From NCBI RefSeq assembly GCF_007748075.1, contig NZ_CP036280.1:1080001-1112000 (forward strand): a stretch of DNA of 32,000 nt, given 5' to 3'. Origin of the DNA: Mucisphaera calidilacus. GTDB taxonomy: Bacteria > Planctomycetota > Phycisphaerae > Phycisphaerales > Phycisphaeraceae. Positions within the stretch are counted from its first letter, which is position 1, and every line of letters starts with the position of its first letter. Shown piece after piece: positions 4,721 through 30,390 of this stretch. Below the pieces are notes generated by a model, which saw only the letters and a list, made by a program, of their open reading frames with translations, was not told the origin of the DNA and did not search any database. The translations under genes were made by a program, and so were the position numbers.

Positions 4721-4740
4721 TTTGAAAGAGTGACCGGTGA

Positions 4741-7573: not shown

Positions 7574-7601
7574 TGGTATGCCGTTGATTCTATCGCCTAC
7601 C

Positions 7602-9305: not shown

Positions 9306-9551
9306 CGATCGACTCCTGACTTGAAGTTCCTCTCGCACAGAAACACAGCCCCCGACCATCACTACATCGTTAGTTTTTGAAGGTGATATAAGACGATTCG
9401 GAACGATGATCGCACAACGCGTCCCTACCCCTCCCACGCCCCTTGCTATCGGACGTTGATCGCCGAATCAAACGCACCACGCGTCAATCACGACGGTAGG
9501 CAACGAGAATTCGTGGCACGCCACCAGCCACGCCGATAGGCTGCCAAACGC

Positions 9552-10367: not shown

Positions 10368-10472
10368 CCGCCACCGAACCACCAGCCCTGTAGCGGCGAC
10401 TATCGAAACAGCCTCCCCGCCAACCTGACCCCCGAGGACTTCGCTCGCTCAATCGGCTTTGGGGTTCCGGCC

Positions 10473-10723
10473 TAGTGTGGTCCAGACCGTTATCGGGAGG
10501 GCTGCACCGGCATTCCTGATGCTGTCCCAGTCAATCAATCATTTCTCTGTTTTAGGTTCTGAGAGACGATCTGCGTGCGCCGCTTGCATCATCGGCGGGC
10601 TTGATTCGCCGCGAGCGTATCCTCGGCGGGCTTCTGAATCATGACTACCGAAAAGCAGCATGACTCACGATGAAAACGGGCAGTGCCCGACAATCTGGAC
10701 CGGCCCCGCTGTGGACCAGGTCA
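10473..10723 (+). mobile_element. Short (251 bp) non-autonomous IS-derived element, copy A (MITE-like)
   Basis: Begins TAGTGTGGTCCAGACCG and ends CTGGACCGGCCCCGCTGTGGACCAGGTCA (TG...CA termini). It has about 45-nt imperfect terminal inverted repeats: left GGTCCAGAccGTtaTCGGG..CTGC versus the reverse complement of CGGGCAGTGCCCGACAATCTGGACC. It carries only the last transposase codons (..IRRERILGGLLNHDYRKAA*). Its last 130 nt are identical to the right end of copy C. Confidence 0.85.
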
Positions 10724-10815
10724 ATGCTCCTCCTATGGTCATCGCACCAGAGCTAAGTCCAAATACGGACCAGCCTGAAGAGAACAGGTCGATATGGATA
10801 TTATATAATACTATA

Positions 10816-11223
10816 TCATCTAGACAGACTCGCGTATGCACCAGTCCTCATCATGATGTAAGGGAGAACCCCATTGAACAGGATTAAATATTGATACATG
10901 TTTTTATACATCAGATAGTCTATGACTAATACACCCGTGCAATATAAGAATGCCAAACCACTCTCTGTTTTCTTTGTACGAGCATCCACCAACACAGGCG
11001 GGCTGCCGAACTGCAGCGACAATACACCGTAGATTGCCAGTCCGTATAAATGAGGTAGCAGCATAAGAGAAGTGAAATAATTCCATTGCCATACCTCAAT
11101 ATCATACACTATCGTTGACAATATAGAGAGCAAGGTATTTGTGGATATCGACCAGAGAAAGGAGGCGATTATCATATTGCGCCAATATGTGGAATACTTT
11201 GGAATCAACAGCGGAATAGTCAT
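10816..11223 (-). CDS. Small hypothetical membrane protein (~135 aa, about 4 TM), AT-rich
   Basis: ORF 10816-11301; start moved to the ATG at 11221-11223 (MTIPLLIPKYSTYWRNMIIASFLW...) because the longer form reads into element copy B. Four hydrophobic segments. I recognise no family. Local GC is far below the window average. Confidence 0.55.
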   Translation of the reverse strand: MTIPLLIPKYSTYWRNMIIASFLWSISTNTLLSILSTIVYDIEVWQWNYFTSLMLLPHLYGLAIYGVLSLQFGSPPVLVDARTKKTESGLAFLYCTGVLVIDYLMYKNMYQYLILFNGVLPYIMMRTGAYASLSR

Positions 11224-11239
11224 GCCTATATATCCTAAG

Positions 11240-11491
11240 TAGTGTGGTCCAGGCCGCTTTCGGGGATGCTGCGCCGACAATCTTGATGCTGTCCCAGTCA
11301 ATCAGTCATTTCTCTGTTTTAGGTTCTGAGAGACGATCTGCGTGCGCCGCTTGCATCATCGGCGGGCTCGATTCGTCGAGAGCGTACCCTCGGCGGGCTT
11401 CTGAATCATTACTACAGGCAAGCAGCATGATTCACGACGAAAACGGGCAGTGCCCGACAATCTGGACCGGCCCCAGTAGTGGGCAAGTTCA
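11240..11491 (+). mobile_element. Short (252 bp) non-autonomous IS-derived element, copy B
   Basis: Same termini and internal sequence as copy A. The first ~50 nt follow the copy-D variant (GCTTTCGGGGATGCTGCGCCGACAATCTTG) and the middle is A-like. The right terminus is degenerate (..CCCCAGTAGTGGGCAAGTTCA). Confidence 0.8.
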
Positions 11492-12244
11492 CTCTTGATA
11501 CTGCTTCAAGATATCCTTGACGGTAGTTGACACATCATCATCGCGTAATGCATGGCCTAGTTCTCTTTGACCCGATGCAGTTTTACCTAATTGCAACGCA
11601 ACAACATGAAGTACTTCTCTGTTATTCAGACTTATGGCAAGATCAAGCGGAGATTGATATCTGTCATCCAAACGACGTACATCCCCATCATTCTCCATGT
11701 CGACACCATGTGCGATCAATAATCGCACCATCTCTACGCTTTCGTTCCTAATGGCGATATGCATTACAGTATCCAGACTCCGCCAGTTATAAAACTGATG
11801 CATCGCACCAATAGACAGCATGGCTTCCACTTCGCGCAGCTTATCTCTAATAACACTATGATGTAAAGGGGTCATCCCAAGGTAATCTACAGCATTGATA
11901 TCATATCCATTGCTACATAGGAGTTCAATCATCTCAATGCTTTCCGTTGGCCTAATAGCAGCTAGATGCACTGGGGAATATCCAAATTCGTTTAGGCGAA
12001 ATATAGCCAGCTTGCGGTCATGCAAAATTTCAGATAATTTCAGTATATTATTCTGGAATATGCTCTGTACCATCATGCCGGCCAGCTTGTCGCTACACAA
12101 CCGGTCGCCCGTCTTCTGGAATGAGTACATGGATGCTGGGGAGTCATTAATATTACTCTTGGCTGGTGTGTCGCTGCGGCTAACATCTCCAGTCATAATT
12201 GCGAACAGCAGGGCAAGTATAGTGACGCTAATCGGTGATATCAT
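11489..12244 (-). CDS. Exported ankyrin-repeat protein, AT-rich
   Basis: 251-aa ORF with an N-terminal signal/anchor (MISPISVTILALLFAIMTG). It then has at least 4 ankyrin-like repeats (GYSPVHLAAIRPT..IEMIELLCSNGYDINAVDYLGMTPLHHSVIRDK..; DTVMHIAIRNESVEMVRLLIAHGVDMEN; QSPLDLAISLNN). Its stop codon (11489-11491) is the terminal TCA of element copy B. Confidence 0.85.
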   Translation of the reverse strand: MISPISVTILALLFAIMTGDVSRSDTPAKSNINDSPASMYSFQKTGDRLCSDKLAGMMVQSIFQNNILKLSEILHDRKLAIFRLNEFGYSPVHLAAIRPTESIEMIELLCSNGYDINAVDYLGMTPLHHSVIRDKLREVEAMLSIGAMHQFYNWRSLDTVMHIAIRNESVEMVRLLIAHGVDMENDGDVRRLDDRYQSPLDLAISLNNREVLHVVALQLGKTASGQRELGHALRDDDVSTTVKDILKQYQE

Positions 12245-12302
12245 GGCATCCTCATTTTATAGTATGTCTTCATGTATGATTACTACCAGCCCCAATTCCA
12301 AT

Positions 12303-12910
12303 TAGTGTGGTCCAGACCGTTTTCGGGAGGGTTGCGCCGGCGGGGGTGGTCCATAATGTTGGGCCGTTGTCGATACACGACTTACGCATCGAGGCGAGGA
12401 GGGCAGAATCATGGTGCCAGCGTGGCTGACGGCCTTGTTGTTGATGCTTGGGGAGGCCTGGTCGGTGCGCCGAGACGCGCGACTGCGCTTTGTTCTGGCT
12501 TAAATCGAACTGCTCAAGGCCCGCGTGCCGGGCAACCGGGTGATCCTCTCGCCGGACGAGCGGTTGCTGCTGATCAAGCTGGGGTCGTCCGTAGGGCATG
12601 ACGTCCATGATCTCGTCGGGATCGTCAGTGTCAAGACCTACAAACGCTGGCTTCGTGATCAGCAGGGGGTAGAGCCCCCGGACAGGTTGGCCGGCCGCCC
12701 AGGATCACCGCTTCGCTGCGGGCGCACCAGTCGCTTGAGAACACACCGCCCGAGGATGTCGGCAAGCCGCCGCCGACCTCGGCGGGCTTGATTCGCCGCG
12801 AGCGTATCCTCGGCGGGCTTCTGAATCATGACTACCGAAAAGCAGCATGACTCACGATGAAAACGGGCAGTGCCCGACAATCTGGACCGGCCCCGCTGTG
12901 GACCAGGTCA
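12303..12910 (+). mobile_element. 608-bp IS-derived element, copy C, with decayed internally deleted transposase remnant
   Basis: Same ends as A/B/D/F. The interior is collinear with copy F but lacks about 140 bp of the left non-coding part. The transposase remnant carries TAA at 12501-12503 where copy F has CAA, and the downstream frame is shifted (ORF fragments 12525-12791). Confidence 0.85.
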
Positions 12911-13082
12911 TTCCGTCCGCACGCGGGTAGATCGGGATTGTGCTCCGCGCGAGCGGGGGTAGAATCGTTGAAAACGGCCCGGCGGCGTAGCCGGGCAAAG
13001 GTCAAATGGGAAATGTCGGTCAAGGGCTTGAAGCCGCCGCTGCGGACAGAATCGTGACCAAACCACGATCAGGACCATCACC

Positions 13083-14486
13083 ATGAAGACACTCCGACAC
13101 AAGATCGCACAAAGCATGACCCTGCTCGCAGTTGCCCTGACTCTGGTGGGCGCTGCCGGATGCGGTGCCCGGTCGAGCGAGGAAGGGGTCATGACCTTCA
13201 CGGACGATCAGTTCGAAGACCTGGTCCGCCGTTCATGGCAGTACGTTGCTATGTACAACGTGAACAACAAGGGCGCGATCCAATACGGAGGCTGGAACGT
13301 CGTCGATGTCGACACTCAGCTGAAGGACCACACGCTCCAGCTCATCGCCCGACCGAATAACGACTCGCTCTACATCACCTGCATGCTCGACCTGCGCATG
13401 GAGCCCGTCATCCTCGACATGCCGGCCTTTGAGTCGAAGTACGTGTCGCTCATGGTCACCGGCTATGACCACTACGTGAACATCCCTATGTCGACCCGGC
13501 AGGGTGATTTCAAAAAGCCTGAGACAATGCTCGTCTTCAGTGAGCGCACCGAAGGCTACGAGAAGGGCGAGGAGGTCGAGGGCGTCGACCGGTACTTCGA
13601 GGCGACCGGGGACTTCCTCTCGGCCGTCTTCCGCGTCATGCCGCACGCCAACGAGCCGGAGCGCTTCGAGCGCATCAAGGAGCAGATGCAGTCGGTGAGG
13701 CTGCTCACCCTGTCCGAACTCCGCGGCGAGGAGCCCGAGCCGATCGGCGACGTCGACTTCCCTGCGGTAGGCAAGACAGACCTCGACCTCTTCGGGAACA
13801 ACCTCCTCGAAGTCATGCAGTTCGTCTTCAACCACACGACCTTTGACCCAAACAACAAGCTCGATCAGCAACTGCTGGCCGCTTACGAGCCCCTGGGAGT
13901 CGAACCTGGCAAGATGTACGACGCAAAGCAGATCGCGAAGATCGACGGCAAGCGCGTCCGTAAGGTCGCCGAGCGCATCGAATCCGATGAGATGGCCAAG
14001 GCGAACCGGCTGGCGGCCAGCACCGACCTGTTCCAGCCCAAGGGCGACATGGCTCTCGATCTGTTGCTCTTCCAGTCCGTCTTCGGCCCTATCGGGCAAC
14101 CGGCGATCGAAGCCGTCTACCCCGCGGTCACGACGGCCGACGGCCAAGCCATGAACGCTCGGCACGATTACGTGATTCGGATGAGCAAGGATGACATGCC
14201 CCCGGCCAAGGCCTTCTGGTCCTGCACCCTCTACGACACAGAGAACGGGTTCTTCATCCCCAACGACCGCAAGAAGTACAGCGTCGGCGAGAACGGCGGC
14301 ATGAAGCTGGATGAGGACGGCGGCATCGAGATCCACATCGCTGCGAAGCGACCCGAGGGTGTGCCGGAGGAGAACTGGCTGCCGCTCAACTGCGGCGATT
14401 ACGACATCGACGTCATCCTGCGGCTCTATGTGCCGGACCTGGAGAAGTACAAGAACTGGAAACCGCCGACGGCAGAGAAACTCTGA
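13083..14486 (+). CDS. DUF1254/DUF1214 two-domain protein, probable lipoprotein
   Basis: 467 aa with signal and lipobox-like LVGAAGC. DUF1254-type RPNNDSLYITCMLDLRMEPVILDMPAFESKYVSLMVTGYDHYVN. DUF1214-type AFWSCTLYDTENGFFIPNDRKKYSVGE...NWLP...ILRLYVP. Confidence 0.85.
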   Translation: MKTLRHKIAQSMTLLAVALTLVGAAGCGARSSEEGVMTFTDDQFEDLVRRSWQYVAMYNVNNKGAIQYGGWNVVDVDTQLKDHTLQLIARPNNDSLYITCMLDLRMEPVILDMPAFESKYVSLMVTGYDHYVNIPMSTRQGDFKKPETMLVFSERTEGYEKGEEVEGVDRYFEATGDFLSAVFRVMPHANEPERFERIKEQMQSVRLLTLSELRGEEPEPIGDVDFPAVGKTDLDLFGNNLLEVMQFVFNHTTFDPNNKLDQQLLAAYEPLGVEPGKMYDAKQIAKIDGKRVRKVAERIESDEMAKANRLAASTDLFQPKGDMALDLLLFQSVFGPIGQPAIEAVYPAVTTADGQAMNARHDYVIRMSKDDMPPAKAFWSCTLYDTENGFFIPNDRKKYSVGENGGMKLDEDGGIEIHIAAKRPEGVPEENWLPLNCGDYDIDVILRLYVPDLEKYKNWKPPTAEKL

Positions 14487-14493
14487 ATCGCTG

Positions 14494-15987
14494 ATGAGGA
14501 CTCAGACTGTGAACAGCTCGTTGAAGACACTCACCCTTGTCCTCTCGCTGGCCGCCGGGCTTCTGACGCCCGGTCTCGCGCTGGCGCAGGCCGCCGAGCG
14601 CGTGGACCTTAACGACGAACAGATGGAGGAGCTGGTGGTGCGCTGCTACCAGTATGTCGCCATGTTCAACGTGAACAACAGGTTCGCGCTCGACGCGGAT
14701 AACCCCTTGAGCTCGGGCGGGTACAACCGGGTCAAAGCCAATACGGATCTGGCCGATCACACGGTGCAGGCCGTCGCACGCCCCAACAACGACACGCTCT
14801 ACGTGGTCGCCATGATCGACGTGACCGAAGAGCCGATCGTGATGGAGATGCCGGCCTTCGACTCAAAGTACGTGTCGCTGATGGTCACCGGCTACGACCA
14901 CTACGTGAACATCCCCATGTCGACGGGTGATGGTGACTTCGGTGAACCGTCGAACATCCTCTTCTACAGCCAACGCACGCCGGGCTATAGAGGTGAGCCG
15001 GTGGAAGGCGCGGACGAGGTGTTCGAAGTGACGGGCGACTTCGTCAGCGCCGTGCTGCGCGTCATGCCGCACGCGGCCGAGCCCGAGCGCCTCGAAGCCA
15101 ACCGCGCGGCCATGCGCAGCGTCGATGTGGAGCCGCTGTCGGAGTTCCTCGGCAAACGCCACGATGACGCGGGCTTCGTGCCGTGGGGCAGCCCCTCCGG
15201 TATCGGCAGGAGTCTGGACCTCAAGGAGGACTTGGCCCGCTTCCCTGAGTTTGGTTCCGACTTCGAGATCTTCGAGGACCGCTTCCTCGAGGTCATGCAG
15301 TTTGTCGTCAACCACACGACTTTCGATCCCGGCGACGAGCTCGACACCGCGCTGCTTCGGATTCTGAAGCCGCTCGGCGTCGAGCCTGGCAAGGCGTTCG
15401 ATCCGGATGGCGTGGCGGAGATCGACGGGGCGGCCCTGCGCGAAGCCGCCGAGCGCTTCGCGTCCGCGAGCCTGGCGAAGATGGGCGATCCTGAGTTCCT
15501 CGCCGAGAACCTGACCAGGACCTTCAAGCCCAAAGGCGAGATTGACGTCGAGTTGCTGGCCATCCAGTCGGTGATCGGGCCGATCGGACAGCCCTCACAG
15601 GAAGCGCTCTATCCGCCCGTGAACACCGAAGACGGCAAACCGATGAACGCGATGTCCGACTACGAGATCGTGATGACGGCCGAAGAGCTGCCGCCGGTCA
15701 ACGCTTTCTGGTCGGCCACACTCTACGAAAACGATACCGGCTTCTTCATCCCGAACGACCGGTTCAAGTACTCCGTGGGCGAGAACGCGGGCTTCAAGCT
15801 CGATGAGGACGGCGGCATCCGTATCGTCATCGCGGCCGAGCAGCCCGAGGGGGTGCCAACAGAAAACTGGCTGCCCATCAACCGGGAAGACATGGACCTC
15901 GACATCATCATGCGCCTCTACGCACCCGACCTTGAACGCTACGAGAGCTGGCGTGCGCCGAAGGCGAAGAAAATCTCCGCGGAGTGA
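14494..15987 (+). CDS. DUF1254/DUF1214 two-domain protein, tandem paralogue
   Basis: ORF 14311-15987; start at the ATG at 14494 (MRTQTVNSSLKTLTLVLSLAAGLLTPGLALAQA, signal peptide), 8 nt after the upstream stop. It shares long identical stretches with the 13083-14486 product (KYVSLMVTGYDHYVNIPMST, LEVMQFV.NHTTFDP, AFWS.TLYE/D..GFFIPNDR.KYSVGEN). Confidence 0.85.
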   Translation: MRTQTVNSSLKTLTLVLSLAAGLLTPGLALAQAAERVDLNDEQMEELVVRCYQYVAMFNVNNRFALDADNPLSSGGYNRVKANTDLADHTVQAVARPNNDTLYVVAMIDVTEEPIVMEMPAFDSKYVSLMVTGYDHYVNIPMSTGDGDFGEPSNILFYSQRTPGYRGEPVEGADEVFEVTGDFVSAVLRVMPHAAEPERLEANRAAMRSVDVEPLSEFLGKRHDDAGFVPWGSPSGIGRSLDLKEDLARFPEFGSDFEIFEDRFLEVMQFVVNHTTFDPGDELDTALLRILKPLGVEPGKAFDPDGVAEIDGAALREAAERFASASLAKMGDPEFLAENLTRTFKPKGEIDVELLAIQSVIGPIGQPSQEALYPPVNTEDGKPMNAMSDYEIVMTAEELPPVNAFWSATLYENDTGFFIPNDRFKYSVGENAGFKLDEDGGIRIVIAAEQPEGVPTENWLPINREDMDLDIIMRLYAPDLERYESWRAPKAKKISAE

Positions 15988-15989
15988 AG

Positions 15990-16240
15990 TAGCGTGGTCC
16001 AGACCGCTTTCGGGGATGCTGCGCCGACAATCTTGATGCTGTCCCATCCAATCAGTCATTATGTCTCTTAGGCTCTAAGAGATATTCTGCGTGTGCCGCC
16101 ACCGGCATCGGTAGGCTCGATCCGTCGAGAGCGTATACTCGGCGGACTTCTGAATCATGACTACCGAAAAGCAGCATGATTCACGATGAAAACGGGCAGT
16201 GCCCGACAATCTGGACCGGCCCCGGCTGTGGGCCAGGTCA
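15990..16240 (+). mobile_element. Short (251 bp) non-autonomous IS-derived element, copy D
   Basis: TAGCGTGGTCCAGACCGCTTTCGGGG... to ...CTGGACCGGCCCCGGCTGTGGGCCAGGTCA. Collinear with copies A/B and the most diverged of the short copies. It starts 3 nt after the stop of the DUF1254/1214 paralogue. Confidence 0.85.
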
Positions 16241-16344
16241 GCCTCCCCGAACAAAGTCCGAATCATCATCGAAAACAAGCATCAATTCTGGATCAGGATC
16301 CGGGGAGAGGCGCAAGCTCAAGCAGTGAATACAAGGGGAATAGC

Positions 16345-17268
16345 ATGTACAGATTTACTCACTACGACCTGCTGTTTTTTGGTCTTTCATTATTTCTCTG
16401 CATTGGGGCTATATGTCTGGCCTCAAACGTGAGTCGGGATCAGGCACGTGGATCTACCTGCGTGTCGAATCTCCGGCAACTTGTCCATGCTGATCTGGTA
16501 TATGCAAATGACTATGATGGCCAGTTCTTCTCGGATTGGAGTTACAAGAAGCAGGCCAAATCTCCTCCTCGCCAGTACTGGTGTGACAAGAGGCGATTAG
16601 GGCAGTATATACAACAGGATAGAGTCGATTGGATTATTGAAGACTCACGTAACTTCACAGAAGGGCAAGACAAGCCATTACAGGCAATCAATGGAATCAT
16701 GAGGTGCCCGGCTTCTCTTGAAGATGAGGCGCGTTCGTATTCTCAGTCTCATTGGGCAAACGGACTTGGGCTCTTTACTAAATGGATTGGTGCTGGCGAG
16801 ATATCGAGAGCTTATCCTTTAGGCAAGCATTTCAATACTCAGAGTGTGAAGAATCCGAGCAAGACCATTCTTCTGGTAGAGTCTCTTGCCAAAACAGAGA
16901 TCATTCAGGACAAGTATTGGGGGACTGAAGAGGTTGGAGCATTTAAACTTCCAAGCTTGCGATGCGCTCCTCAGAAGCGAGTATGGGAGAGTCCTGTGAA
17001 TGTGTTCTCCCCGACTGAAGGCCGATACGTAAATGCAGCCTCTATTACATGGGATGTCAATTACTCTAATCATCGCACACGCAATAATATTACATATGAC
17101 CCTCGCCGAAATCCTGGTCCATTAGGGGTAGTCAGTATTGGATTTGTAGACGGGCACGTACAGTCTGTGTCCAGTGAGGCGATCTGGAGTCCTGACACTT
17201 TCAGATCAGTCTATAATATTCTGTGGTCAGATAACGACAAGGATATTGATAGTGAGTATTTTAAATAG
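16345..17268 (+). CDS. Degenerate prepilin-type/DUF1559-like (H-X9-DG-type) protein, AT-rich
   Basis: ORF 16186-17268; start at the ATG at 16345 (AAGGGGA RBS 6 nt upstream) because the upstream 53 codons are element-D sequence. N-terminus MYRFTHYDLLFFGLSLFLCIGAICLA...CVSNLRQL resembles the GFTLIELLVV...C.SNLKQ pseudopilin leader. The C-terminus has IGFVDGHVQSVS, like the H-X9-DG tail. Confidence 0.65.
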   Translation: MYRFTHYDLLFFGLSLFLCIGAICLASNVSRDQARGSTCVSNLRQLVHADLVYANDYDGQFFSDWSYKKQAKSPPRQYWCDKRRLGQYIQQDRVDWIIEDSRNFTEGQDKPLQAINGIMRCPASLEDEARSYSQSHWANGLGLFTKWIGAGEISRAYPLGKHFNTQSVKNPSKTILLVESLAKTEIIQDKYWGTEEVGAFKLPSLRCAPQKRVWESPVNVFSPTEGRYVNAASITWDVNYSNHRTRNNITYDPRRNPGPLGVVSIGFVDGHVQSVSSEAIWSPDTFRSVYNILWSDNDKDIDSEYFK

Positions 17269-17328
17269 AATCGCAAGGTCAACACGAACAAAGTGACCTG
17301 CCCCCGGTTGTTGCGCCAGCCGTAACGC

Positions 17329-17535
17329 TTACCACTGGCTGATCTCCAGGGGTTCCAGTGCTGACCGTAGCGTAGCGGAGGGCGGCTCTGGAACCAAGGT
17401 CTCTGGTGCCGGCGGGCGGTAGCCCAGCGACGAATGCGGCCGGATCGTGTTGTAGTGAATCCGCCAACGCTCGATCGCCTGAGCGACCCACTCGCAACCG
17501 GAACGATTGAACAAAAACGTGAACTGATCGGCATT
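17329..17535 (-). pseudogene. 3' fragment of an IS3-family transposase (OrfB/rve C-terminus)
   Basis: Minus-strand translation ..FTFLFNRSGCEWVAQAIERWRIHYNTIRPHSSLGYRPPAPE.. is the characteristic end of IS3-type integrase-core transposases. No upstream catalytic region or IS ends are present. Confidence 0.65.
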
Positions 17536-17614
17536 TACATCAAAGAGATAAAGGCTGATCCAGATACCAAAAGCGTCTCAATCAGCCTTTACCCGGCCTT
17601 GTTCAGACCGTTAA

Positions 17615-17741
17615 TAGTGTGGTCCAGACCGTTTTCGGGAGGGTTGCGCCGACATTCCTGATGCTGTCCCAGTCAATCAGTCATTTTGTGTCTTAGGTTC
17701 TAAGAGATACCCTGAGTTCGCTGACTGCGCGAGGAGGCGGG
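17615..17741 (+). mobile_element. Left end (about 127 bp) of the IS-derived element family, unit E
   Basis: TAGTGTGGTCCAGACCGTTTTCGGGAGGGTTGCGCCGACATTCCTGATGCTGTCCCAGTCAATCAGTCATTTTGTGTCTTAGGTTCTAAGAGATA... is collinear with 29645-29771 of copy F up to ..CTGACTGCGCGAGGAGGCGGG. Similarity then stops. Confidence 0.75.
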
Positions 17742-17827
17742 CCCCAGCGCGGGCAATGTGCCATGAGTTGGTGCTCGTCAGGGGGTTATTCTACCTGCAC
17801 CTGCCCGAATACGGTAACCGCCCGGGT

Positions 17828-19399: not shown

Positions 19400-19460
19400 T
19401 GCAACGCTCCTTGGAAGCTTGCCCCAGTGTAGCGGATGCAATACTCCTTAATCGCCCAAG

Positions 19461-19576
19461 GCTGAGGGATCGGTGTCCGAGGCGGCTTCTGATCATGACG
19501 ACAGGAAAGCGTTATGATTCACGAGGAAAACGGGCAGTGCCCGACATTCTGGACCGGCCCCGCGGTGGACCAGATC
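19461..19576 (+). mobile_element. Right end (about 116 bp) of the IS-derived element family, unit E
   Basis: ..GGCGGCTTCTGATCATGACGACAGGAAAGCGTTATGATTCACGAGGAAAACGGGCAGTGCCCGACATTCTGGACCGGCCCCGCGGTGGACCAGATCG aligns with the right ~115 nt of copies A/C/D/F, including the CGGGCAGTGCCCG hairpin. Same orientation as the left end at 17615. Confidence 0.75.
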
Positions 19577-19923
19577 GCCCTGGCAGGAATCATCTCAGAT
19601 CTCTCACTTCGCCTGGATCAGGTTCTGGGTTGCAGGTCAATCCTCTCACAGCAGGTGGACCAATGATCCCGAGGGGTCAGTTGTTGGGTGATTGGGTCAT
19701 GAGCGTTTACATATTCCTTATCGCTAGATGTTCCTTTGAGCTGTAAAGGCCTGGTTGGTCATCCAAACCACACAAAAGAGATCAAAAATTCGATTGATCG
19801 GAATAAAGGTTTACTGCCTCGAAGAAGTTCGTTAACCTAGGGGCATATTCTTTGGGTGGTTCATGCGTTGATGACTTCCTTTTCTGGGGCAGTGCCCGGT
19901 CAAGATTCCGAAGGGATATCGCT

Positions 19924-22900: not shown

Positions 22901-25900
22901 TTGAATCCTGGGATGAAACGCCCTTTGAGTCAATAGATACAAATTCTAAAGACTCTACCTTTTACGCACTCATTAGAAATAATATATTTAGCTCTGATAT
23001 TCTTGAATACGCAACAGAATACGATATTCGCATCTTTTCTAAAGGCCCGGGAGGCATTCTCTCAGAAGAATCAATCGAACTATCGTCGACAACATTCGTT
23101 CGCCCGGAAGCCCCAGTGAATCTTACAGCTACACCGCTTGCAAATAATGTAATACGGTGTACCTGGGAACATGATAGTGATGATTTATACAAATATAGTG
23201 TAAAAGGTAACTCGCTCTATGGAATAAGTACAAATACGAGGGCATACACACATATAATAGACCAATATCATGCGACAGAGGTGCGCGTCGTAGCGACTGA
23301 CTTGTCTACTGGGGTCTCTTCAGAATCTGTCAGCGTGAGCCTCGAAATACCCGTAGACCCGCTGCCTGTACCCCAGAATCTTGTTGCTGTTCCAATCGAC
23401 TCAAATAGCGTGCGTGTCGCCTGGCAGGATCAGGCCGACGATGAGTACTATAGCCGGCGTGGATCATATATTCAATACGTGCCGGTCGGACCAGATGGAG
23501 TAATTGACTGGGATAGTGACGAGGCTTACGAATCTCAGGATAATGATGAACGCAGTTTCAGAACAAGTAATAACGCAGGAGACGCAAGGCATGGTCTTAG
23601 TGTGATTATTACGGACCTGGACGCCGACACTGAGTACGCAGTGCGCGTCCGCACTCTGTCGTCCGGACCCGACACGTCAACAACAAATGGAAATGAAGTA
23701 CTATCCGAATATTCTGAACCTGTGATCGTAAAGACGACAGGCGAAGATCTTCATAGTGCAACCATCGACTCTGTACGCACGCTTCCTGGCGGCCACTGGC
23801 AAATCAACTGGTCCTACGACGACCAGAGCGCCCTCCCGCCCGACGGATACGAACTAGAACTCCAAAGCATCGGCTCAAACGGCCCCGAGGCCATCCCCGG
23901 CCACACCTACAATCTCCCTTACGGAATCAACGAATTCTTCATTGAACAGCCGCCAGCCGACGCCATCTTGATCGCTATCACGCCCACGCGAGGCAGCGAC
24001 ACCGGCACCACCGCCATCTCGTTCGCACCTGATCCCGCCACACCCCTTGTCGTTCCCTCACCCCAACAACTCCACCTCGCAGAACAGCCAGGAGATCCCA
24101 CCCAACTCCGCGTCGTCTTCTCCTCAGTACGCGACGCCGACGGCTACCGCCTCACCATCGAAGAGGCTGGCACCCTCACCCAAATACGCGAGATCCATCA
24201 ATCCGCCGAAGCCTACCTCAGCGAAACCCTACAACTCAATAACCCTAACGCCGACATCACCGTCACCATCTACTCAAAGCGCGGCGAGGACGTGACCCCC
24301 ACAGGCCGGTCAGCCAACCGACTCGCGCCGTCCACGCCCGCGCAGTTCACCGAGAACCTCTTCCTCGAAACCGTCTCATGGACACCCGTCACAGGTAGCG
24401 ACCACCTCTTGTTCCTCAACGATGGCATCCGCCATCAATACCTCGGCACCTTCACCGACAGCACCAACAATTACACACTCCCCGACGTCTCCGCAGACAA
24501 CCTTCAGGAAATCGCGCTGGTCACCCACACACCAGACAGCGGACCATCCCATCAAGCCACGGCCGATATCTACGTCACCAGTGCTCTCGGGGACAGCGAT
24601 ACCGACGGCCTCACCAACGGCCAGGAGTTCACAACCTACGGCACCGACCCATTCCAGCCCGATACCGACAACGACCTGCTCAACGACGGCGACGAAGTCC
24701 TTACCTACGCCACCAACCCACTCGATCCCGACTCGGACGACGATAACCTAGACGACGGCCTCGAAGTCCTCGTCCACAGCACCAACCCCAAAGCCCAGGA
24801 CACCGACAGCGACGGCCTCTCGGATGGCGCTGAAGTCCTCACCCACCTGTCCGACCCAACAAGCCAGCATTCAGATTCAGACGGTATCTCGGACGGCGAA
24901 GAAGTCCTCGTCCACGGAACCAAGCCCACCAATCCCGACACCGATGAAGACACCCTCACCGACGATCGCGAAATCTTTGCCGAACTCACCAACCCGCTCA
25001 GCTCTGACACCGACGGCGACGGACTCGATGACGCCTGGGAGGTCAAGTACAAGGACGTCGACGACATCGACCCAATCAATCACTACACCGACTCCGACAG
25101 CAACCCGGATGGCGATCTCCTGAACACCCTTCAGGAATACGCAGTAGGCACCGACCCCGGAGTCGCCGACGAACACCATTTCTGGACCAAACCCTCGCAG
25201 TCGCCCGACGCATCCCTCGATGCCGACCGCGACGGCATCCTCGACATCATCGAAGCCGACCTCGGCACCAATCCCAACACACGAGATACCGATGGTGATG
25301 GCCTCACTGACGGCTTCGAACTCCAGCACGGCTTCGACCCCAACAACCCCGACGAAGAAGGCAACCAAATCCTCGACGGACAGGACGACGCCGACGACGA
25401 CACCCTCAACAACAGCCAGGAGCAAAGCAACGGCACCAACCCATCCAACCCCGATACCGATGGCGACGGCACCAACGACAACGACGAAATCGCCAACGGC
25501 TCCGACCCCACCGACGCCTCCGATGGCGGCCAGCCCGTCCCCACCGCCTACCGCAACTCGATCCGCTTCACCCTCCACGACTCGGACAGTTCAGGCACAC
25601 ACTGGGATGAAGCATACGGCAGCCGCGAACTCATCATCAACGACCGCATCCGTCTCACCGTCAACCACAATGATGGCATCATCGAACACCAAGAATACTG
25701 GTACCACGCCGATGCCGACGAAGAAATCCAACTCCAATTCACCCATACCTGGAACCACGATCCCGACCTCGACTATCACTACCGGTACACCAACCTACCC
25801 GAAGGCGTCTCAGATCGTGGCTGGGGCTCGGGCTGGGGCTGGGGCTGGGGCGGGGGCTGGGGCTGGGGCCGAATCTACGTGAGCAGCAACACGCCCTTCT

Positions 25901-28659
25901 GGTCAGACGACCCCAACTACCTGCTCACCACAACCGTATGGCCCGCTGGCGATTGGGACTGGTCATACGAAAGGATTGATTCACCCCCGCCCGACATCAA
26001 CTGGTCCGGTTCGGCCACCATCCACACAGGAGGGCTCGACCTTGAAATCACCGACCTTCCCAACGACCAGGAAGACGACCCGCAGCAGGCACCCATCCTC
26101 CCCGTCTCCTCCGCCGATGCCGACAACGACGACATCCCCGACGCCCTCGACATCAACGACACCACACGCCCGCTCCTCCCCGTCGAACTCACCCTCTCCA
26201 GCAACTACAACGCCGGCTGGTCAAGCGGGATCGACCCCGCCAACACCATGATCACCTTCCGCTACCAGGGACCCGACCAGACCGAAATCAACAACCTCGC
26301 CTCACTCACCCCCACCACGCTCCAATCCCAAGGCGAACCAGCCACCACACCAGGCCTCCGCCTCTGGCAGGATGACGCATCCTCACCATCTCTCTACCTA
26401 GCCCCCGACACACCCATCTCCGCTCAAGACCTCGGCCTCTCACCCGGCAACACCGTCACTCTCTGGATCGAAGCCTCCCCCGGCTCCAACGCCAACCAGC
26501 CCTACGCCCTCGCTGCCGAGATGAACCTCACCGACACCAACCAAACCAATTACACGCGCCTCATCGCCGACACCGTCCTCGCCCGCCCACTTGCGGTCGA
26601 CCTCGACATCGATAGCGACAACACCGCGCTCTACGACCTTCCCGAAGGCTCCGAGTCGGAAGACGAAATTGAGGCCTCCAAACCCAAAGTCATCCTCGTC
26701 AACCGTGACGACGACGATAACGATCAAATCCCCGACTACGCCGATGGCTACGGTGCTTTCTCAGACAACCCCAGCAGCGTCTACAACGCCGATGAGCAGT
26801 TTGTTCCGGTCACCCTCAAGCTACCTGTTGTTCAAGACACCCAAGCCAGCCTCGTGTTTCACTACTCAGCAGACGACCCCGCGTCGGTCACCCGCAGCAG
26901 CCTCAACATCGAAGAAATCGCGAGCTACGCAGACCCCACAGCCTACGCCTACAGCGCCGCCGGCCAAGGCCTTCTCCGGCTATGGACCAAGCCGGGTGAA
27001 TACACAAGACTTGCAGACCCCATCTCCCAAGGCGGTGACTTTGTCCCCGCAGGAACAACCATCTCACTCGACGACCTCACCATCGATGCCCAAGGCACGG
27101 TCACCCTCTATCTCGAAGCCGTCTACGGCTCCGCAACACCCACAAATATCACGGTTGATTACACAGTCGACTCCAAGACCGCCTCGGATGTCATCGCCGT
27201 CCTCCCACTGGCTCCAGACATCAGCATCAGCAGTGATGTCCAACTCGAAGGCTATACCCTCATCACAGGCTCCGGTTCCATCACCGGAACCTCAGGCAAC
27301 GACATCATCTTTGGCTCAGACTCTGCCGACTTGATCGACGCCGGATCAGGTGACGACATCATCATCGCCGGCTCAGGCGACGACGAGATCTACAGCGGGA
27401 ACGGCTCAGACATCATCTACCCAGGCCGAGGCGACGACCTCATCGACGTCGATAACGCCGACACGCTCCCGATCGCTTCACCCGAAGCAGAGAACACCAT
27501 CATCTACCGCGACAAGATCGTGGTCTCCTACACCAACGACAACAACCTCATGCTCCTCGGCCAGGCCCTAGCCACCTACGAACTGCTCTTCGGCCCGGAC
27601 GATCCCTGGCTGGAGGCATTCGCAGGCATCGGCGGAACCATTCAGGCTCGCTCCGAGACCATCTGGACCTTCAGCGATGCGTACGTCGACAATGTCGACG
27701 GCAAGCCGGTCTTGACTCTCGAACTGGAAAACAGCGATCTCGATGACCCGTTCAAGATGGCCACCGCCATGAGACAGGCAATCCTCAGCTACGCCGGCTC
27801 CAGCCCCGTTCTTTTCAATGGCGGCTACCGCAAGTTCCAGGCCTACTTCACGGACAACCTCCAACTCTTCGACCTCGCCAAACAACGTAGCTACACAGAC
27901 GAACAAGATGAGATCAATACCTACCAGCAACTCCAGCAGCTGGGCATCGCTCAGGCAGCGGAGGCCGCAGGCCTCCTCGCAACACTTTACGCCTCAGGCG
28001 TCACCATCATCAGTGAAGCGGCAGATCTGGTCTTCGTGCTCCACGATCTGGCTACCAGCGAATCCGGCGAAGAACAAGTGATCGCGATGGCAGGCCTTCT
28101 GCCGTTTATCCCCGTAGGAGCTACAGGCGGCGTCGCTAAAATCATCCTGAGATCGCCCGTAGGTGAACTCCTGGTCTACACGACCGGCAAAGTCCTATAC
28201 CTCCCCAACACCACGGCGCAGCTCGGGATTAAACTCACCCGAGCAACACTGTCTGAGGGCGCCGAGAAAATCCGCTTCGTCGACGACCCCACAGGCATCT
28301 CTGTACCAATCTTTGGTCGAGGCCATGCTACAGGAGCCCTGAACCACGACAAAGCCACGGATAGATTAGCCGAGCAGTTGGCTGCCACCGGGAACTACGA
28401 ATACATCACCACGAATCTGACCTGGAGAACAACGCTCAATGACGCCGCTGGCAACCCATTAACAGATTCACCTCGACGACCCGATGTGATCGCCGTTCGC
28501 AGAGACGGCAGGGTTGAAGCTTACGAAATACCATCTGAATTAGATGACCCAACACTTCTATATAACCGTATGCAAGAGATAATGCAGACCTTACCTGATG
28601 AACGAAGAACTGATCCGATAATTATTTCTATTACCGATATCCTAGGCACACCCGAATGA
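19924..28659 (+). CDS. Giant (2911 aa) multidomain secreted/surface protein: LEPRVLLSA N-motif, dockerin-like, RTX, PKD-like, FN3 array, TSP3-type Ca repeats, (GW)n, RTX, unassigned C-terminal module
   Basis: ORF 19852-28659 (the track start is a TTG). I prefer the ATG at 19924 (MSLFLWIQRRLASQF) with AAGGGA 7 nt upstream. Domain calls come from reading the translation; see the sub-features below. Confidence 0.9.
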   Translation: MSLFLWIQRRLASQFTSANDEPSPSSGLETLEPRVLLSATPPGFSGEGLMPLGFTASSQLVLSDGFNLTGTNEDDLLTSLRTTSGKRNYSFLGGAGDDVFIIHNTKGHLSGGAGYDRAYTTNSNLTLDSVEEFWVRDDQKVQWVLSGGSAISADRIGETQSFHEINERLSSRHHATGSVPIATLPTPIASSSVLTSDADTEIALSGGLSLETLIVPSPSDNSFASPQNFSTLNLPDNSDLLVSTNTGDVNDDGATDALDIDLLLSLRGTPVEVSPSADLFPDGVLDQRDVDHLIWGILGTEYGDSNLDGRVDLLDLGILSASFNDVGGWANGDYTGEGGIDLLDLGIQAAVFNFDATLPRNVIGTSSDDILYGRRGDDTLNGYAGDDWLWGGQGNDLLYGGPGDDIMHGNQGNNTFIGGTGYDLADQDGKSDVRATVGDLSVSASSSADIGFGYTVSLETDAASTGLRWWRIDWGDGSDPDGDGIVGEILDISTTEANHVYLTGPMATQVTVSALSADTETDAVITPISVLDTAEGLSLQTPANLIAVGVAPNQIFLNWDDNETAEDGYQIKDLANNETLFLPRDHSSYTWTTPNQHYTTTFEVLAYFENEDGTVTYSAPAVTDAATTLPLAPVNVTGIGITSERLGVYWTNLADASERDRTGFIIEYTPYVEGSEADWTRASTRTESDEDANYYTISDLSPEQDYWVRVIAENDLGATVSLAAIVATREIPLPPTDLSATALSNTHVRLNWTNNSEYIDMHEVQWRVAGSQEWDDSSKIKIRAANSAVVDGLDSNTTYEFRIIPWYLYTESNITLNDNIYNTILETTQNRELADIKTYAVADRATSRIKIKWINEVDPEVEDRARIIVKYKPADQADWALAEQRTERSSCTETTLRGLASGTEYDIRIASENSSGIRSAWLQFKTSTLPDSQASTGPLSPPSALYAIPTKGDSLDPDGDSLGPDIELHWLNALPASATGRTGFRIEYKPASIESWDETPFESIDTNSKDSTFYALIRNNIFSSDILEYATEYDIRIFSKGPGGILSEESIELSSTTFVRPEAPVNLTATPLANNVIRCTWEHDSDDLYKYSVKGNSLYGISTNTRAYTHIIDQYHATEVRVVATDLSTGVSSESVSVSLEIPVDPLPVPQNLVAVPIDSNSVRVAWQDQADDEYYSRRGSYIQYVPVGPDGVIDWDSDEAYESQDNDERSFRTSNNAGDARHGLSVIITDLDADTEYAVRVRTLSSGPDTSTTNGNEVLSEYSEPVIVKTTGEDLHSATIDSVRTLPGGHWQINWSYDDQSALPPDGYELELQSIGSNGPEAIPGHTYNLPYGINEFFIEQPPADAILIAITPTRGSDTGTTAISFAPDPATPLVVPSPQQLHLAEQPGDPTQLRVVFSSVRDADGYRLTIEEAGTLTQIREIHQSAEAYLSETLQLNNPNADITVTIYSKRGEDVTPTGRSANRLAPSTPAQFTENLFLETVSWTPVTGSDHLLFLNDGIRHQYLGTFTDSTNNYTLPDVSADNLQEIALVTHTPDSGPSHQATADIYVTSALGDSDTDGLTNGQEFTTYGTDPFQPDTDNDLLNDGDEVLTYATNPLDPDSDDDNLDDGLEVLVHSTNPKAQDTDSDGLSDGAEVLTHLSDPTSQHSDSDGISDGEEVLVHGTKPTNPDTDEDTLTDDREIFAELTNPLSSDTDGDGLDDAWEVKYKDVDDIDPINHYTDSDSNPDGDLLNTLQEYAVGTDPGVADEHHFWTKPSQSPDASLDADRDGILDIIEADLGTNPNTRDTDGDGLTDGFELQHGFDPNNPDEEGNQILDGQDDADDDTLNNSQEQSNGTNPSNPDTDGDGTNDNDEIANGSDPTDASDGGQPVPTAYRNSIRFTLHDSDSSGTHWDEAYGSRELIINDRIRLTVNHNDGIIEHQEYWYHADADEEIQLQFTHTWNHDPDLDYHYRYTNLPEGVSDRGWGSGWGWGWGGGWGWGRIYVSSNTPFWSDDPNYLLTTTVWPAGDWDWSYERIDSPPPDINWSGSATIHTGGLDLEITDLPNDQEDDPQQAPILPVSSADADNDDIPDALDINDTTRPLLPVELTLSSNYNAGWSSGIDPANTMITFRYQGPDQTEINNLASLTPTTLQSQGEPATTPGLRLWQDDASSPSLYLAPDTPISAQDLGLSPGNTVTLWIEASPGSNANQPYALAAEMNLTDTNQTNYTRLIADTVLARPLAVDLDIDSDNTALYDLPEGSESEDEIEASKPKVILVNRDDDDNDQIPDYADGYGAFSDNPSSVYNADEQFVPVTLKLPVVQDTQASLVFHYSADDPASVTRSSLNIEEIASYADPTAYAYSAAGQGLLRLWTKPGEYTRLADPISQGGDFVPAGTTISLDDLTIDAQGTVTLYLEAVYGSATPTNITVDYTVDSKTASDVIAVLPLAPDISISSDVQLEGYTLITGSGSITGTSGNDIIFGSDSADLIDAGSGDDIIIAGSGDDEIYSGNGSDIIYPGRGDDLIDVDNADTLPIASPEAENTIIYRDKIVVSYTNDNNLMLLGQALATYELLFGPDDPWLEAFAGIGGTIQARSETIWTFSDAYVDNVDGKPVLTLELENSDLDDPFKMATAMRQAILSYAGSSPVLFNGGYRKFQAYFTDNLQLFDLAKQRSYTDEQDEINTYQQLQQLGIAQAAEAAGLLATLYASGVTIISEAADLVFVLHDLATSESGEEQVIAMAGLLPFIPVGATGGVAKIILRSPVGELLVYTTGKVLYLPNTTAQLGIKLTRATLSEGAEKIRFVDDPTGISVPIFGRGHATGALNHDKATDRLAEQLAATGNYEYITTNLTWRTTLNDAAGNPLTDSPRRPDVIAVRRDGRVEAYEIPSELDDPTLLYNRMQEIMQTLPDERRTDPIIISITDILGTPE
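20662..20982 (+). other. Dockerin-like Ca-binding repeat module within the giant protein
   Basis: GDVNDDGATDALDIDLLL...DLFPDGVLDQRDVDHLIWGILGTEYGDSNLDGRVDLLDLGILSASFNDVGGWANGDYTGEGGIDLLDLGIQAAVFN. A closely similar module sits before the PEP-CTERM tail of the GH30 gene at 30332-32000. Confidence 0.7.
21013..21192 (+). other. RTX / hemolysin-type calcium-binding nonapeptide repeats (block 1)
   Basis: GTSSDDILYGRRGDDTLNGYAGDDWLWGGQGNDLLYGGPGDDIMHGNQGNNTFIGGTGYD shows GGxGxD periodicity. Confidence 0.8.
21547..24580 (+). other. Array of about 10 fibronectin type III-like domains
   Basis: Recurrent ~90-120-aa units open with P.NL.A/V....V.L.W and close with Y.(F/V)R(V/I), e.g. PANLIAVGVAPNQIFLNWDD, PTDLSATALSNTHVRLNWTN..TTYEFRII, PQNLVAVPIDSNSVRVAWQD..TEYAVRVRT. 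Confidence 0.7.
24592..25530 (+). other. About 14 thrombospondin type 3-like (bacterial TSP3) Ca-binding repeats
   Basis: DSDTDGLTNGQEF..DPFQPDTDNDLLNDGDEV..NPLDPDSDDDNLDDGLEV..DTDSDGLSDGAEV..DSDGISDGEEV..DTDGDGLDDAWE..DTDGDGLTDGFE..DTDGDGTNDNDE. Confidence 0.8.
25818..25869 (+). repeat. In-frame hexanucleotide microsatellite (GGCTGG)n encoding (GW)n
   Basis: GGCTGGGGCTCGGGCTGGGGCTGGGGCTGGGGCGGGGGCTGGGGCTGGGGC encodes GWGSGWGWGWGGGWGWG. It contains eight consecutive G3-5 tracts with 1-3 nt loops on the coding strand. Confidence 0.9.
27268..27450 (+). other. RTX / hemolysin-type calcium-binding repeats (block 2)
   Basis: GSGSITGTSGNDIIFGSDSADLIDAGSGDDIIIAGSGDDEIYSGNGSDIIYPGRGDDLIDV. Confidence 0.8.
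28315..28656 (+). other. Extreme C-terminal module with PD-(D/E)xK-like motif arrangement (candidate nuclease/toxin tip)
   Basis: GRGHATGALNHDKATDRLAEQLAATGNYEYITTNL...RRPDVIAVRRDGRVEAYEIPSE. The PD codons are at 28480-28485 and E-A-Y-E at 28516-28527. This is a motif-level resemblance only, with no canonical Lys after the acidic residue. Confidence 0.35.
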
Positions 28660-29573
28660 ATCGCGATCATTTGAATAATTATGCTCACGCGTCATACGGA
28701 TTGAGGTGTACACGTGAACATATACCTCAATTTGTAAATACTGTACTATCCTTCGGGAGTGATAATAATCTTGGCTTGACTCATTTCCAGATAGATGCCC
28801 CAGGCTTTGCAAATAAACCACTGACCCTTAAACGCAAGCTATCAGAGCTCCGGGAAATAGCCCCAGAAGATTGCCGGTGTGTGAGCTTCTACCGGATGCT
28901 CAAAGGATCCAGGCAATGGTTAGGCGGTGACCAAATTTACATTAGCACACGGCTAATGCCAGAACTCCCATCTTCAAATGAATTCGCCTGTCACATTGGT
29001 GAAGATGTTGAACTGGATATGGTCAATACAATTAAATTATTACTATCTAGATTACTCCCAATACTCCGCCCCACTTATGCAATTAGTTACTATCTTAGTG
29101 TAAAGCGAAGACCATCACTTTACGCCATGCCAATAAGAGCAGGACTTCCATTACGTCATCAATGTGATTTTGAACAACTATATGAATGTGACCGCAGCGA
29201 AGCATTCTTCTTGAATAATAGTAGACAGCTCTACAACCACGGCATCCTCCGAGATGTCTACCCCGAGAACTTCCTAACCCATCACCAGCTCGACGCCGAC
29301 GTGCTCGGCCAGACCCTCCGGGACTGGATCACATCGAGCCCCGACCACGGCGTCCTCGAACACTACTGCCAAGACATCTACCGCTGGTCAGTCCCCGAAG
29401 ACAAGATCCAACCGATCACGGACGTCATGTGGAAAGCCGGCCGCCTCCTCACCCGTGACGAAGCCGAGGAATACGCCTATCAACTCGGCTTGGCTGAACG
29501 CCCACCCTACCGCCAGCCCGGCTGGCACCTCAAAGACCCCAGACCCGTCCCAGGCGACCCGTCCACATGGTGA
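28656..29573 (+). CDS. Hypothetical 305-aa protein translationally coupled to the giant gene (candidate immunity/partner protein)
   Basis: The ATG at 28656-28658 overlaps the giant gene's TGA (28657-28659) in an ATGA arrangement. There is no signal peptide or TM segment, and I recognise no family. The first ~190 codons are AT-rich and the last ~115 are GC-rich. Confidence 0.7.
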   Translation: MNRDHLNNYAHASYGLRCTREHIPQFVNTVLSFGSDNNLGLTHFQIDAPGFANKPLTLKRKLSELREIAPEDCRCVSFYRMLKGSRQWLGGDQIYISTRLMPELPSSNEFACHIGEDVELDMVNTIKLLLSRLLPILRPTYAISYYLSVKRRPSLYAMPIRAGLPLRHQCDFEQLYECDRSEAFFLNNSRQLYNHGILRDVYPENFLTHHQLDADVLGQTLRDWITSSPDHGVLEHYCQDIYRWSVPEDKIQPITDVMWKAGRLLTRDEAEEYAYQLGLAERPPYRQPGWHLKDPRPVPGDPSTW

Positions 29574-29644
29574 GCAAGAGACGATCGCAGGATCAAGCTT
29601 GCTCGTGAAATGCTAGCGGGAACATTCTTTTCTGTCGGAACAGG

Positions 29645-30390
29645 TAGTGTGGTCCAGACCGTTATCGGGAGGGCTGCGCCGGCATTCCTGATGCTGTCCC
29701 AGTCAATCAGTCATTTTGTGTCTTAGGTTCTAAGAGATATTCTGCATCAGCCGACTGCGCGAGGGGGGGCGGGATCCGGGTACTCTTCCGAGGGTCCGGT
29801 GGCCCGGGGTCCGGGGGGGCGGGGGTGGTCCATAATGTTGGGCCTTTGTCGATACAGGACTTACGCATCGAGGCGAGGAGAGCGGAATCATGGTGCCAGC
29901 GTGGCTGACAGCCTTGTTGTTGATGCTTGGGGAGGCCTGGTCGGTGCGCCGAGACGCGCGACTGCGCTTTGTTCTGGCTCAAATCGAACTGCTCAAGGCT
30001 CGCGTGCCGGGCAACCGGGTGATCCTCTCGCCGGACGAGCGGTTGCTGCTGCTCAAACTGGGGTCGGCCGTAGGGCATGACGTCCATGATCTCGTCGGGA
30101 TCGTGAGTGTCAAGACCTACAAACGCTGGCTTCGCCAGCAGCAGGGGGGTAGAGCCCCCGGACAGGTTGGCCGGCCGCCCAAGGTCACCGCTTCGCTTCG
30201 TCCGCACCAGTCGCTTGAGAACACGCCGCCCGAGGATGTCGGCAAGCCGCCACCGACCTCGACGGGCTGGATCCGTCGAGAGCGTACCCTCGGCGGGCTT
30301 CTGAATCATGACTACCGAAAAGCAGCATGATTCACGATGAAAGCTGGCCGTGCCCGACAATCTGGACCGGCTGCGCTGTGGACCAGGTCA
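29645..30390 (+). mobile_element. 746-bp IS-derived element, copy F: longest family member in the window, transposase core deleted
   Basis: Same termini as A-E (TAGTGTGGTCCAGACCG ... CTGGACCGGCTGCGCTGTGGACCAGGTCA). It has a 245-nt left non-coding region with a G-rich tract (29761-29825), then a 146-codon transposase remnant. The right-end hairpin is mutated (CTGGCCGTGCCCG instead of CGGGCAGTGCCCG). Confidence 0.85.
29890..30330 (+). pseudogene. Internally deleted transposase ORF (146 aa): N-terminal region fused in frame to the extreme C-terminus; DDE/rve core absent
   Basis: MVPAWL..RDARLRFVLAQIELLKARVPGNRVILSPDERLLLLKLG..VKTYKRWLRQ..GRPPK joins directly to RPHQSLENTPP..IRRERTLGGLLNHDYRKAA*. 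The tail (RPHQSL...RERLGGLL..Y.R.AA) is the typical end of rve-type integrase-core transposases (IS481/IS3-like). About 250 aa of catalytic domain are missing. Confidence 0.7.

Follow-up and report, generated by a model that had tools for sequence, protein, structure and literature searches.

The stretch analysed here, a 32,000-nt window of the chromosome of Mucisphaera calidilacus Pan265 (CP036280), carries between zupT and a GH30 gene a region of about 20 kb that is divided by six copies of a repeated unit, named A to F from left to right, into segments whose genes face both directions (Table 1). The chromosome is closed at 3,486,541 bp and its GC content is 63.9% (PMC8882080); the ZupT protein and the open reading frame (ORF) within unit F are 100% identical to annotated proteins of M. 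calidilacus. A first-pass annotation of the same DNA had described six units with common termini which all lie on the + strand and are missing from the first 10.4 kb, and the observation of six co-oriented units is confirmed. Each of the two end motifs, the left one at the first base of every unit and the right-end 21-mer GTGCCCGACAWTCTGGACCGG, was matched exactly six times in the window and on the + strand only, against a chance expectation of 0-0.05 in shuffled sequence, and a search of the window for repeat families recovered the identical units A-F. Word-7 blastn of unit F against both strands of the whole window found no further copy or fragment and none within 1-10472. The two separate ends of unit E are likewise real, except that alignment with the other right ends places its right terminus at 19577 and not at 19576.

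All six units are non-autonomous and arose by deletion from a single insertion sequence (IS), as the first-pass annotation had supposed in calling them IS-derived miniature elements. A, B and D resemble miniature inverted-repeat transposable elements (MITEs), C and F are longer decayed copies, and E resembles a mobile insertion cassette (MIC), its two ends enclosing a passenger gene. The ORF of F is identical to an annotated hypothetical protein of M. calidilacus and is a transposase remnant which aligns with residues 1-105, covering the helix-turn-helix (HTH) region, and with the C-terminal ~35 residues of family transposases of ~370 aa. The catalytic DDE core is deleted from it, the rve domain is deleted in all copies of the window, and the remnant ORF of C is interrupted by stop codons. 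No intact transposase, integrase or recombinase came up when the principal ORFs of the window were scanned against Pfam, in agreement with the earlier description. The termini form an imperfect inverted repeat (8/13 bases, T....TGGTCCA.A), and in F the motif GGTCCA occurs at 7 and 183 and TGGACC at 719 and 735, which gives two sites per end. A, B and D retain F positions ~1-109 and ~602/615-746 and have one deletion junction in common, while another, internal to the transposase gene, is common to C and F; therefore at least two decayed forms multiplied after their decay. The copies diverge from one another by 8-24%.

Table 1. Units, intervening segments and other features of the region, in positions of the window; for the right-end 21-mer the first base is given
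Feature	Positions	Strand	GC	Description
A left flank, TTCCGGCC	10465..10472	+		Half of a possible 8-bp target duplication
Unit A	10473..10723	+		251 bp, MITE-like; left 118 nt and right 132 nt of the parent IS; right-end 21-mer at 10683
Hairpin CGGGCACTGCCCG then TTTTC, in A	10677..10689	minus		Terminator-like in scan
Segment 1	10724..11239		41.5%	Small membrane-protein ORF, minus strand, 10816-11301, extending into B
Unit B	11240..11491	+		252 bp, MITE-like; deletion junction as in A and D; right-end 21-mer at 11450
Segment 2	11492..12302		43.6%	Ankyrin-repeat ORF, 11489-12244, minus strand
Unit C	12303..12910	+		608 bp; transposase-internal deletion of F and extra 138-bp deletion after position 39; right-end 21-mer at 12870
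C right flank, TTCCGTCC	12911..12918	+		7/8 match to A left flank, offset 0
Segment 3	12911..15989	+	61.8%	Backbone-like GC; two tandem DUF1254/DUF1214 genes
Unit D	15990..16240	+		251 bp, MITE-like; right-end 21-mer at 16199
Segment 4	16241..17614		48.8%	360-aa ORF and debris of another IS
Transposase fragment	17329..17514	minus		C-terminal, rve-type (IS3/IS481-like); rve_3 Pfam E = 2.5e-10; unrelated to the unit family
E left end	17615..17737	+		123 nt, corresponding to F positions 1-123, 91% identity
E passenger gene	17828..19441	minus	63.4%	Membrane protein, 523 aa (NCBI annotation), 537-aa ORF
E right end	19484..19577	+		~94 nt, 83% identity to F, most divergent right end; terminus ...GTGGACCAGATCG; right-end 21-mer at 19537
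Segment 5	19578..29644	+	54.5%	Internally mosaic, 43-64%; 2935-aa gene and 305-aa ORF (28656-29573)
Unit F	29645..30390	+		746 bp, most complete copy; right-end 21-mer at 30350
F remnant ORF	29890..30330	+		146 aa; transposase residues ~1-105 (HTH region) and last ~35 (...RRERTLGGLLNHDYRKAA)

Unit A is a mosaic of the other copies. Over columns 1-68 of its left part it differs from F at 2/68 positions and from B at 11/68, whereas over columns 69-118 it matches B without a mismatch (0/50) and differs from F at 15/50. Its right 132 nt are identical to those of C (0/132 mismatches, as against 16/133 to B), and the Fisher p values of these contrasts range from 7e-5 to 0.01. Besides, the haplotypes of the first 39 nt group the units as {A,F}, {C,E} and {B,D}, a division that does not follow the structural classes {A,B,D} and {C,F}. 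The copies have demonstrably undergone homologous exchange with one another, and as some tracts are perfectly identical, some of this exchange was recent relative to the divergence between copies.

The units also coincide with steps in base composition. When 400 nt on each side of a unit were compared, the mean absolute difference in GC across the units was 0.116, while random positions in the same region gave 0.050 +/- 0.017 (P about 2e-4). The segments and the E passenger differ widely in GC, the flanking backbone having 61-62%. Were the units random insertions into an older mosaic, there would be no reason to expect them at its seams.

The junctions between units and segments were found to be of the arbitrary kind left by IS-mediated breakage, and are unlike site-specific cassette boundaries. 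The ankyrin-repeat ORF runs to the edge of B, where its stop codon is formed by the last three bases of the unit (terminal TCA, minus strand), and the last ~19 codons of the GH30 ORF (minus strand) lie inside the right end of F. D starts 2 nt past the stop codon of the second DUF1254/DUF1214 gene. E encloses its gene between its own left and right ends; the remaining genes occupy intervals that run from a right end to the left end of the following unit. No direct repeat that could represent a target-site duplication was found around any of the six units. Among the 36 combinations of flanks, the left flank of A and the right flank of C are the sole pair that agrees at 7/8 positions in exact register, a match which 2% of random draws equal, and this hints that A, segment 1, B, segment 2 and C might have moved as one compound unit with an 8-bp duplication. 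The hairpin CGGGCACTGCCCG of A recurs in B (11444-11456), C (12864-12876), D (16193-16205) and E (19531-19543) and is mutated in F; it sits 30-45 nt inside the right end, and the site is conserved in related IS of other genomes. The minus-strand genes adjoining A and B have this hairpin directly downstream, and the units may terminate their transcripts.

Relatives of the parent IS were found in other genomes. A metagenome scan returned 24 loci of the family, which is common in Planctomycetota metagenomes; their termini read TAG[AT]G[TC]GGTCCA... and ...TGGACCnnnTCA, with a hairpin CGGGCAGTGCCCG just after the stop codon. Both termini are present in the full-length copies L002, L004 and L005, while L006 and L008 have the same left motif and related right ends. 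L002, located in a 5.76-Mb genome, is nearly intact (one TGG-to-TAG change) and reconstructs to a transposase of 368 aa with HTH_32, rve_3 (E = 1.5e-10) and rve_2 (E = 1.8e-4) domains. This protein scored 97.8 bits against the IS481 model (NF033577, cut-off 224) and 82.9 bits against the IS3 model (NF033516, cut-off 160), reaching neither cut-off. The parent is an IS of ~1.4 kb with a 368-aa DDE/rve transposase; its termini, TAGnGnGGTCCA / TGGACCnnnTCA, are imperfect, and GGTCCA occurs a second time further inside each end. It belongs to a planctomycetal group which lies outside the curated IS481 and IS3 families and is only distantly related to both. In a plasmid collection only distant 'integrase core domain' proteins (<41% identity; Streptomyces, Leptospira and others) and no named IS were found. 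L002 also harbours an IS110-family element (DEDD_Tnp_IS110, Transposase_20; 11377-12423, minus), which lies within the right non-coding part, between the transposase stop codon and the right terminus at 12581.

These relatives show some of the habits of the family. No target duplication of 3-15 bp was detected at the five complete relatives L002, L004, L005, L006 and L008. A neighbouring copy or fragment within a few kb is co-oriented at five of six loci (L002, L024, L018, L012 and L003), the only inverted pair being that of L020, which belongs to the most distant subgroup; together with the five adjacent pairs of the window, 10 of 11 neighbour pairs are co-oriented, although the pairs are not fully independent. 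In L011 and L013 the IS and the right flank, over at least 3 kb, are 99.98% identical, and the left flanks differ, a pattern that would be expected from a unit of IS plus flank or from recombination at the IS. L009 (87-1689, 9309-11233) and L022 (1-1168, 8264-10174) are contigs of ~76% identity which carry the related IS at an equal distance, 7-8 kb, from a conserved segment; this could reflect an orthologous or a site-specific insertion kept in diverged genomes.

A conserved region of two hairpins and a terminator lies upstream of the IS in L004 (1659-1975), L006 (78-394), L011 (9490-9806) and L014 (417-733). The left end of the IS falls 6-7 nt past this region in four relatives and one degenerate remnant, and 13 nt further in for L006. 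In L003 (6500-6760 and 15100-15330) nothing interrupts the region, and exactly at the position of the IS end a tRNA-Met gene (15218-15292, minus) comes to its end. The right flanks of the IS copies in these relatives are mutually unrelated and without tRNA, and sub-threshold Rfam matches upstream of these copies fall only on the terminator-hairpin region. The arrangement suggests either homing to the 3' end of a tRNA gene or a region that co-travels with the IS. The copies of our window have no flank of the double-hairpin or tRNA-Met type.

The distribution of the family in the host and its relatives was also assessed. A scan of 185,579 species-representative genomes gave no true match to the 21-mer that is invariant in the six copies, and viral contigs gave no match at all; the single genome match, in a metagenome-assembled genome of Planctomycetaceae, was dismissed as chance, as it codes for KVPDNLDRP inside a DUF1501-like gene. 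A protein search with the F ORF gave no M. calidilacus protein besides this ORF itself, the next best match being a metagenome protein of 67% identity, and therefore the annotation of the host contains no closely related master copy. The comparison of gene order with related genomes that the first-pass annotation had proposed was run and was uninformative: neither the nearest relatives of ZupT (75-76% at the amino acid level) nor a 'Mucisphaera sp.' genome has neighbours in common with the window to the left or to the right of zupT, and no empty site could be reconstructed from them.

Through these observations we arrive, with about even confidence, at the explanation that the region is a mosaic and largely foreign island which was assembled or reshaped by recombination at copies of the unit. 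The copies would serve as portable stretches of homology at the joints between DNA segments, and segments would have been added, and the array then reshuffled, by recombination at these copies, a reshuffling that would continue to the present. A circle carrying one copy would recombine with a resident copy, and repeats of this event would yield a co-oriented array with foreign segments in between. Integration of a circle through a shared copy always gives direct repeats, no new duplication and hybrid copies, which would explain why all units point the same way, why duplications are missing and why copies are mosaic. What we infer from these patterns is the sequence of events, together with the donors and the enzyme involved. 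The shared 100-700 bp might have been recombined by RecA, or a transposase of the family might have acted in trans and left unresolved cointegrates; for the recent tracts, recombination by the host is simpler to assume, since no transposase remains. The first-pass annotation had offered an island built by repeated recombination between copies as the second of two alternatives, and this one gains support from the mosaic structure of A, the steps in GC and the absence of target-site duplications of the units' own. It explains the data better than the cassette array which was the first alternative. A wider proposal, improbable in our estimate, is that a planctomycetal IS group transposes without duplication, homes to the tRNA-Met 3' end in relatives and leaves unresolved cointegrates, and that its decayed copies act as a chromosomal platform for gene capture, a counterpart, beyond the IS6 family and clinical bacteria, of the IS26 resistance arrays, which would in addition supply a minus-strand terminator and even stop codons to the captured genes.

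Several points weigh against assembly by recombination between copies. The co-orientation in the window alone has a probability of 1/32, which the first-pass annotation had calculated correctly, and which is weak evidence when taken alone. B has low-GC segments on both sides, and F is almost without a GC step. The mosaicism could reflect gene conversion after independent insertions, and the absence of duplications in the window may be a trait of the family, as they are also absent at its intact relatives. The 21-mer scan would show the copies to be restricted to the island, as far as they keep the 21-mer, only if Pan265 was included with the window alone masked. Among the relatives compared, none has a conserved gene order that might show an empty site. 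With 8-24% divergence the copies are either old or came from donors in which they had already diverged. The 7/8 match between the flanks of A and C (p about 0.02) is only a hint.

Two alternatives remain live and partly overlap with this account. The one that survives best, which we nevertheless hold to be unlikely, is a set of independent insertions, in which a MITE-like family was mobilised in trans by a master IS since lost, clustered by local hopping or by a preference for AT-rich foreign DNA in an island older than the insertions, became co-oriented by chance or replication bias and later underwent gene conversion. The deletion junctions shared by A, B and D and by C and F show that decayed copies did multiply, and low-GC DNA is found on at least one side of each unit, if only as a narrow stretch for F. 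Members of the family do not seem to leave target duplications at all, so that their absence is no argument against transposition, and the orientation statistic of the window presses little on this explanation. However, five of the seven element positions (E being counted as two ends) lie on composition steps, which a pre-existing mosaic does not require. The six copies fall within 20 kb of a 3.49-Mb genome, and the scan met their conserved 21-mer nowhere else. Neighbouring copies at the loci of other genomes are mostly co-oriented as well (5/6), and no master transposase was found in the window or among the M. calidilacus protein matches.

The second, which we consider about as unlikely, is that the whole array took shape elsewhere, in another lineage or on a plasmid where the IS family was active, and arrived as one island, its copies having been inert since then except for homologous exchange. 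It is favoured by the apparent lack of a master copy in the host, by the divergence of the copies, by the debris of another IS within the region and by a gene order which on both sides of zupT is unlike that of all available relatives. On the other hand, segment 3 and the E passenger have a host-like GC content, so that the island is not uniformly foreign, and the 0/132 and 0/50 tracts indicate very recent exchange inside the present genome. The window moreover contains no island-level integrase, no att repeat, no tRNA and no Rfam family, and import in one piece merely shifts the question of how the array was formed to another genome.

A dedicated cassette system, with the ~250-bp units as attC- or pdif-like sites for a recombinase encoded elsewhere, is largely refuted and very improbable. 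In its favour are the repeated co-oriented separators with one gene or short operon between them, and the small GGTC/GACC palindromes in each end. But these separators are remnants of a transposase gene with IS termini and come in three structural types and sizes, the genes face both ways, two junctions truncate ORFs, and E has the opposite register; no integrase or Xer-type enzyme is encoded nearby, the remnant at ~17495-17600 (+) matching no family. That the repeats were collapsed or mis-joined in assembly, as repeats of 250-750 bp can be, is scarcely credible for copies that are mutually diverged (by 8-30%), differ in structure and have unique flanks within a closed chromosome.

Among the other features of the region, the debris between D and E noted in the first-pass annotation is present, yet it comes from a different IS, being the rve_3 C-terminal fragment on the minus strand. 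The 360-aa ORF of the same segment gave only sub-threshold family matches (best DUF1559, E = 0.39). A short ORF (17495-17600, +) that reads into the left end of E (...TIEQKRELIGIYIKEIKADPDTKSVSISL) resembled the C-terminus of a recombinase by eye, but no Pfam or NCBIfam model matched it. The tandem DUF1254/DUF1214 paralogues between C and D (13083-15987, +) are ~70% identical at the DNA level and host-like in GC. The 2935-aa ORF of segment 5 (19852-28659, +) codes for a surface protein with fn3, RTX and TSP3 domains, and its GC content is 44% at ~22.1-23.6 kb and 60-64% in the TSP3 repeats.

The E passenger protein belongs to no Pfam or NCBIfam family. It is a multi-pass protein with two metagenome counterparts of 91% identity, and across Phycisphaeraceae, Opitutales, Sumerlaeia and Kiritimatiellia its identity is 70-78%, a conservation unusually high for an unnamed protein family. 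That it travels with the element ends elsewhere was rejected, for in the two closest homologues the similarity stops at the coding region and no ends are present. End-like fragments beside E (CAGACCGTTA upstream and ...GCAGGTCA downstream) were also discarded, as a window-wide local-alignment scan did not place them above background.

If assembly by recombination between copies is correct, foreign genes accrete between directly oriented IS copies not only with IS6-family elements and in antibiotic-resistance regions, and the same architecture can arise in an environmental (marine) planctomycete from remnants of an unrelated IS that have lost the transposase. Decayed IS copies would then be a useful marker for the joints of mosaic islands. 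The IS group is in addition flagged for its missing target duplications and for its possible targeting of tRNA ends. If this explanation fails, the region is simply a local cluster of MITEs.

Several known systems offer a comparison. With integron and pdif arrays the region shares repeated, co-oriented short elements that separate single genes, but there is no integrase domain in its principal ORFs, no attC structure and no XerC/D site; its separators are IS remnants of 251-746 bp, the gene orientation is mixed and ORFs are cut at the junctions. MICs, a concept that comes from IS231 derivatives of Bacillus cereus, consist of IS ends which flank a passenger gene in place of the transposase, and the two ends of E flank the ORF 17828-19441 in the same way. 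A, B and D are like MITEs in their length of ~250 bp, their lack of a transposase, their inverted termini from a parent IS and their multiplication after deletion; unlike MITEs they have no target-site duplications, are clustered and co-oriented rather than scattered, and have no parent IS detected in the host. The parent resembles IS481 and IS3 in its single-ORF HTH and rve (DDE) transposase of ~370 aa, in its best NCBIfam matches and in its right terminus ...CA. It differs from them in scores far below the cut-offs, in the lack of duplication at five complete copies, in having two GGTCCA sites per end and in the left end which, in its relatives, is repeatedly placed at the position of a tRNA-Met 3' end.

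The closest likeness is with the arrays of IS26 and the IS6 family, which grow by targeted conservative or copy-in cointegration (PMC7885326, PMC7986276); pseudo-compound transposons have also been reported for an IS1595-family element (PMC12561309). As in these arrays, directly oriented copies enclose gene segments, internal copies have no target duplications of their own and genes are truncated at the boundaries. Movement as a translocatable unit, or growth by cointegration at an existing copy, may have left indirect traces, in the mosaic copies of the window and in the IS and right flank shared by L011 and L013. The family of the window, however, is rve/IS481-IS3-like (HTH_32 and rve_3) and not IS6; its copies are all decayed, have no transposase at hand and are 76-100% identical rather than identical, and the array forms a chromosomal island of a planctomycete with surface-protein, ankyrin and transporter genes in place of resistance genes. 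By this analogy the array would work like an IS26-type array without being a member of that group, and as a whole it resembles transposon-bounded gene clusters that are already known, and not a cassette system of a new kind.

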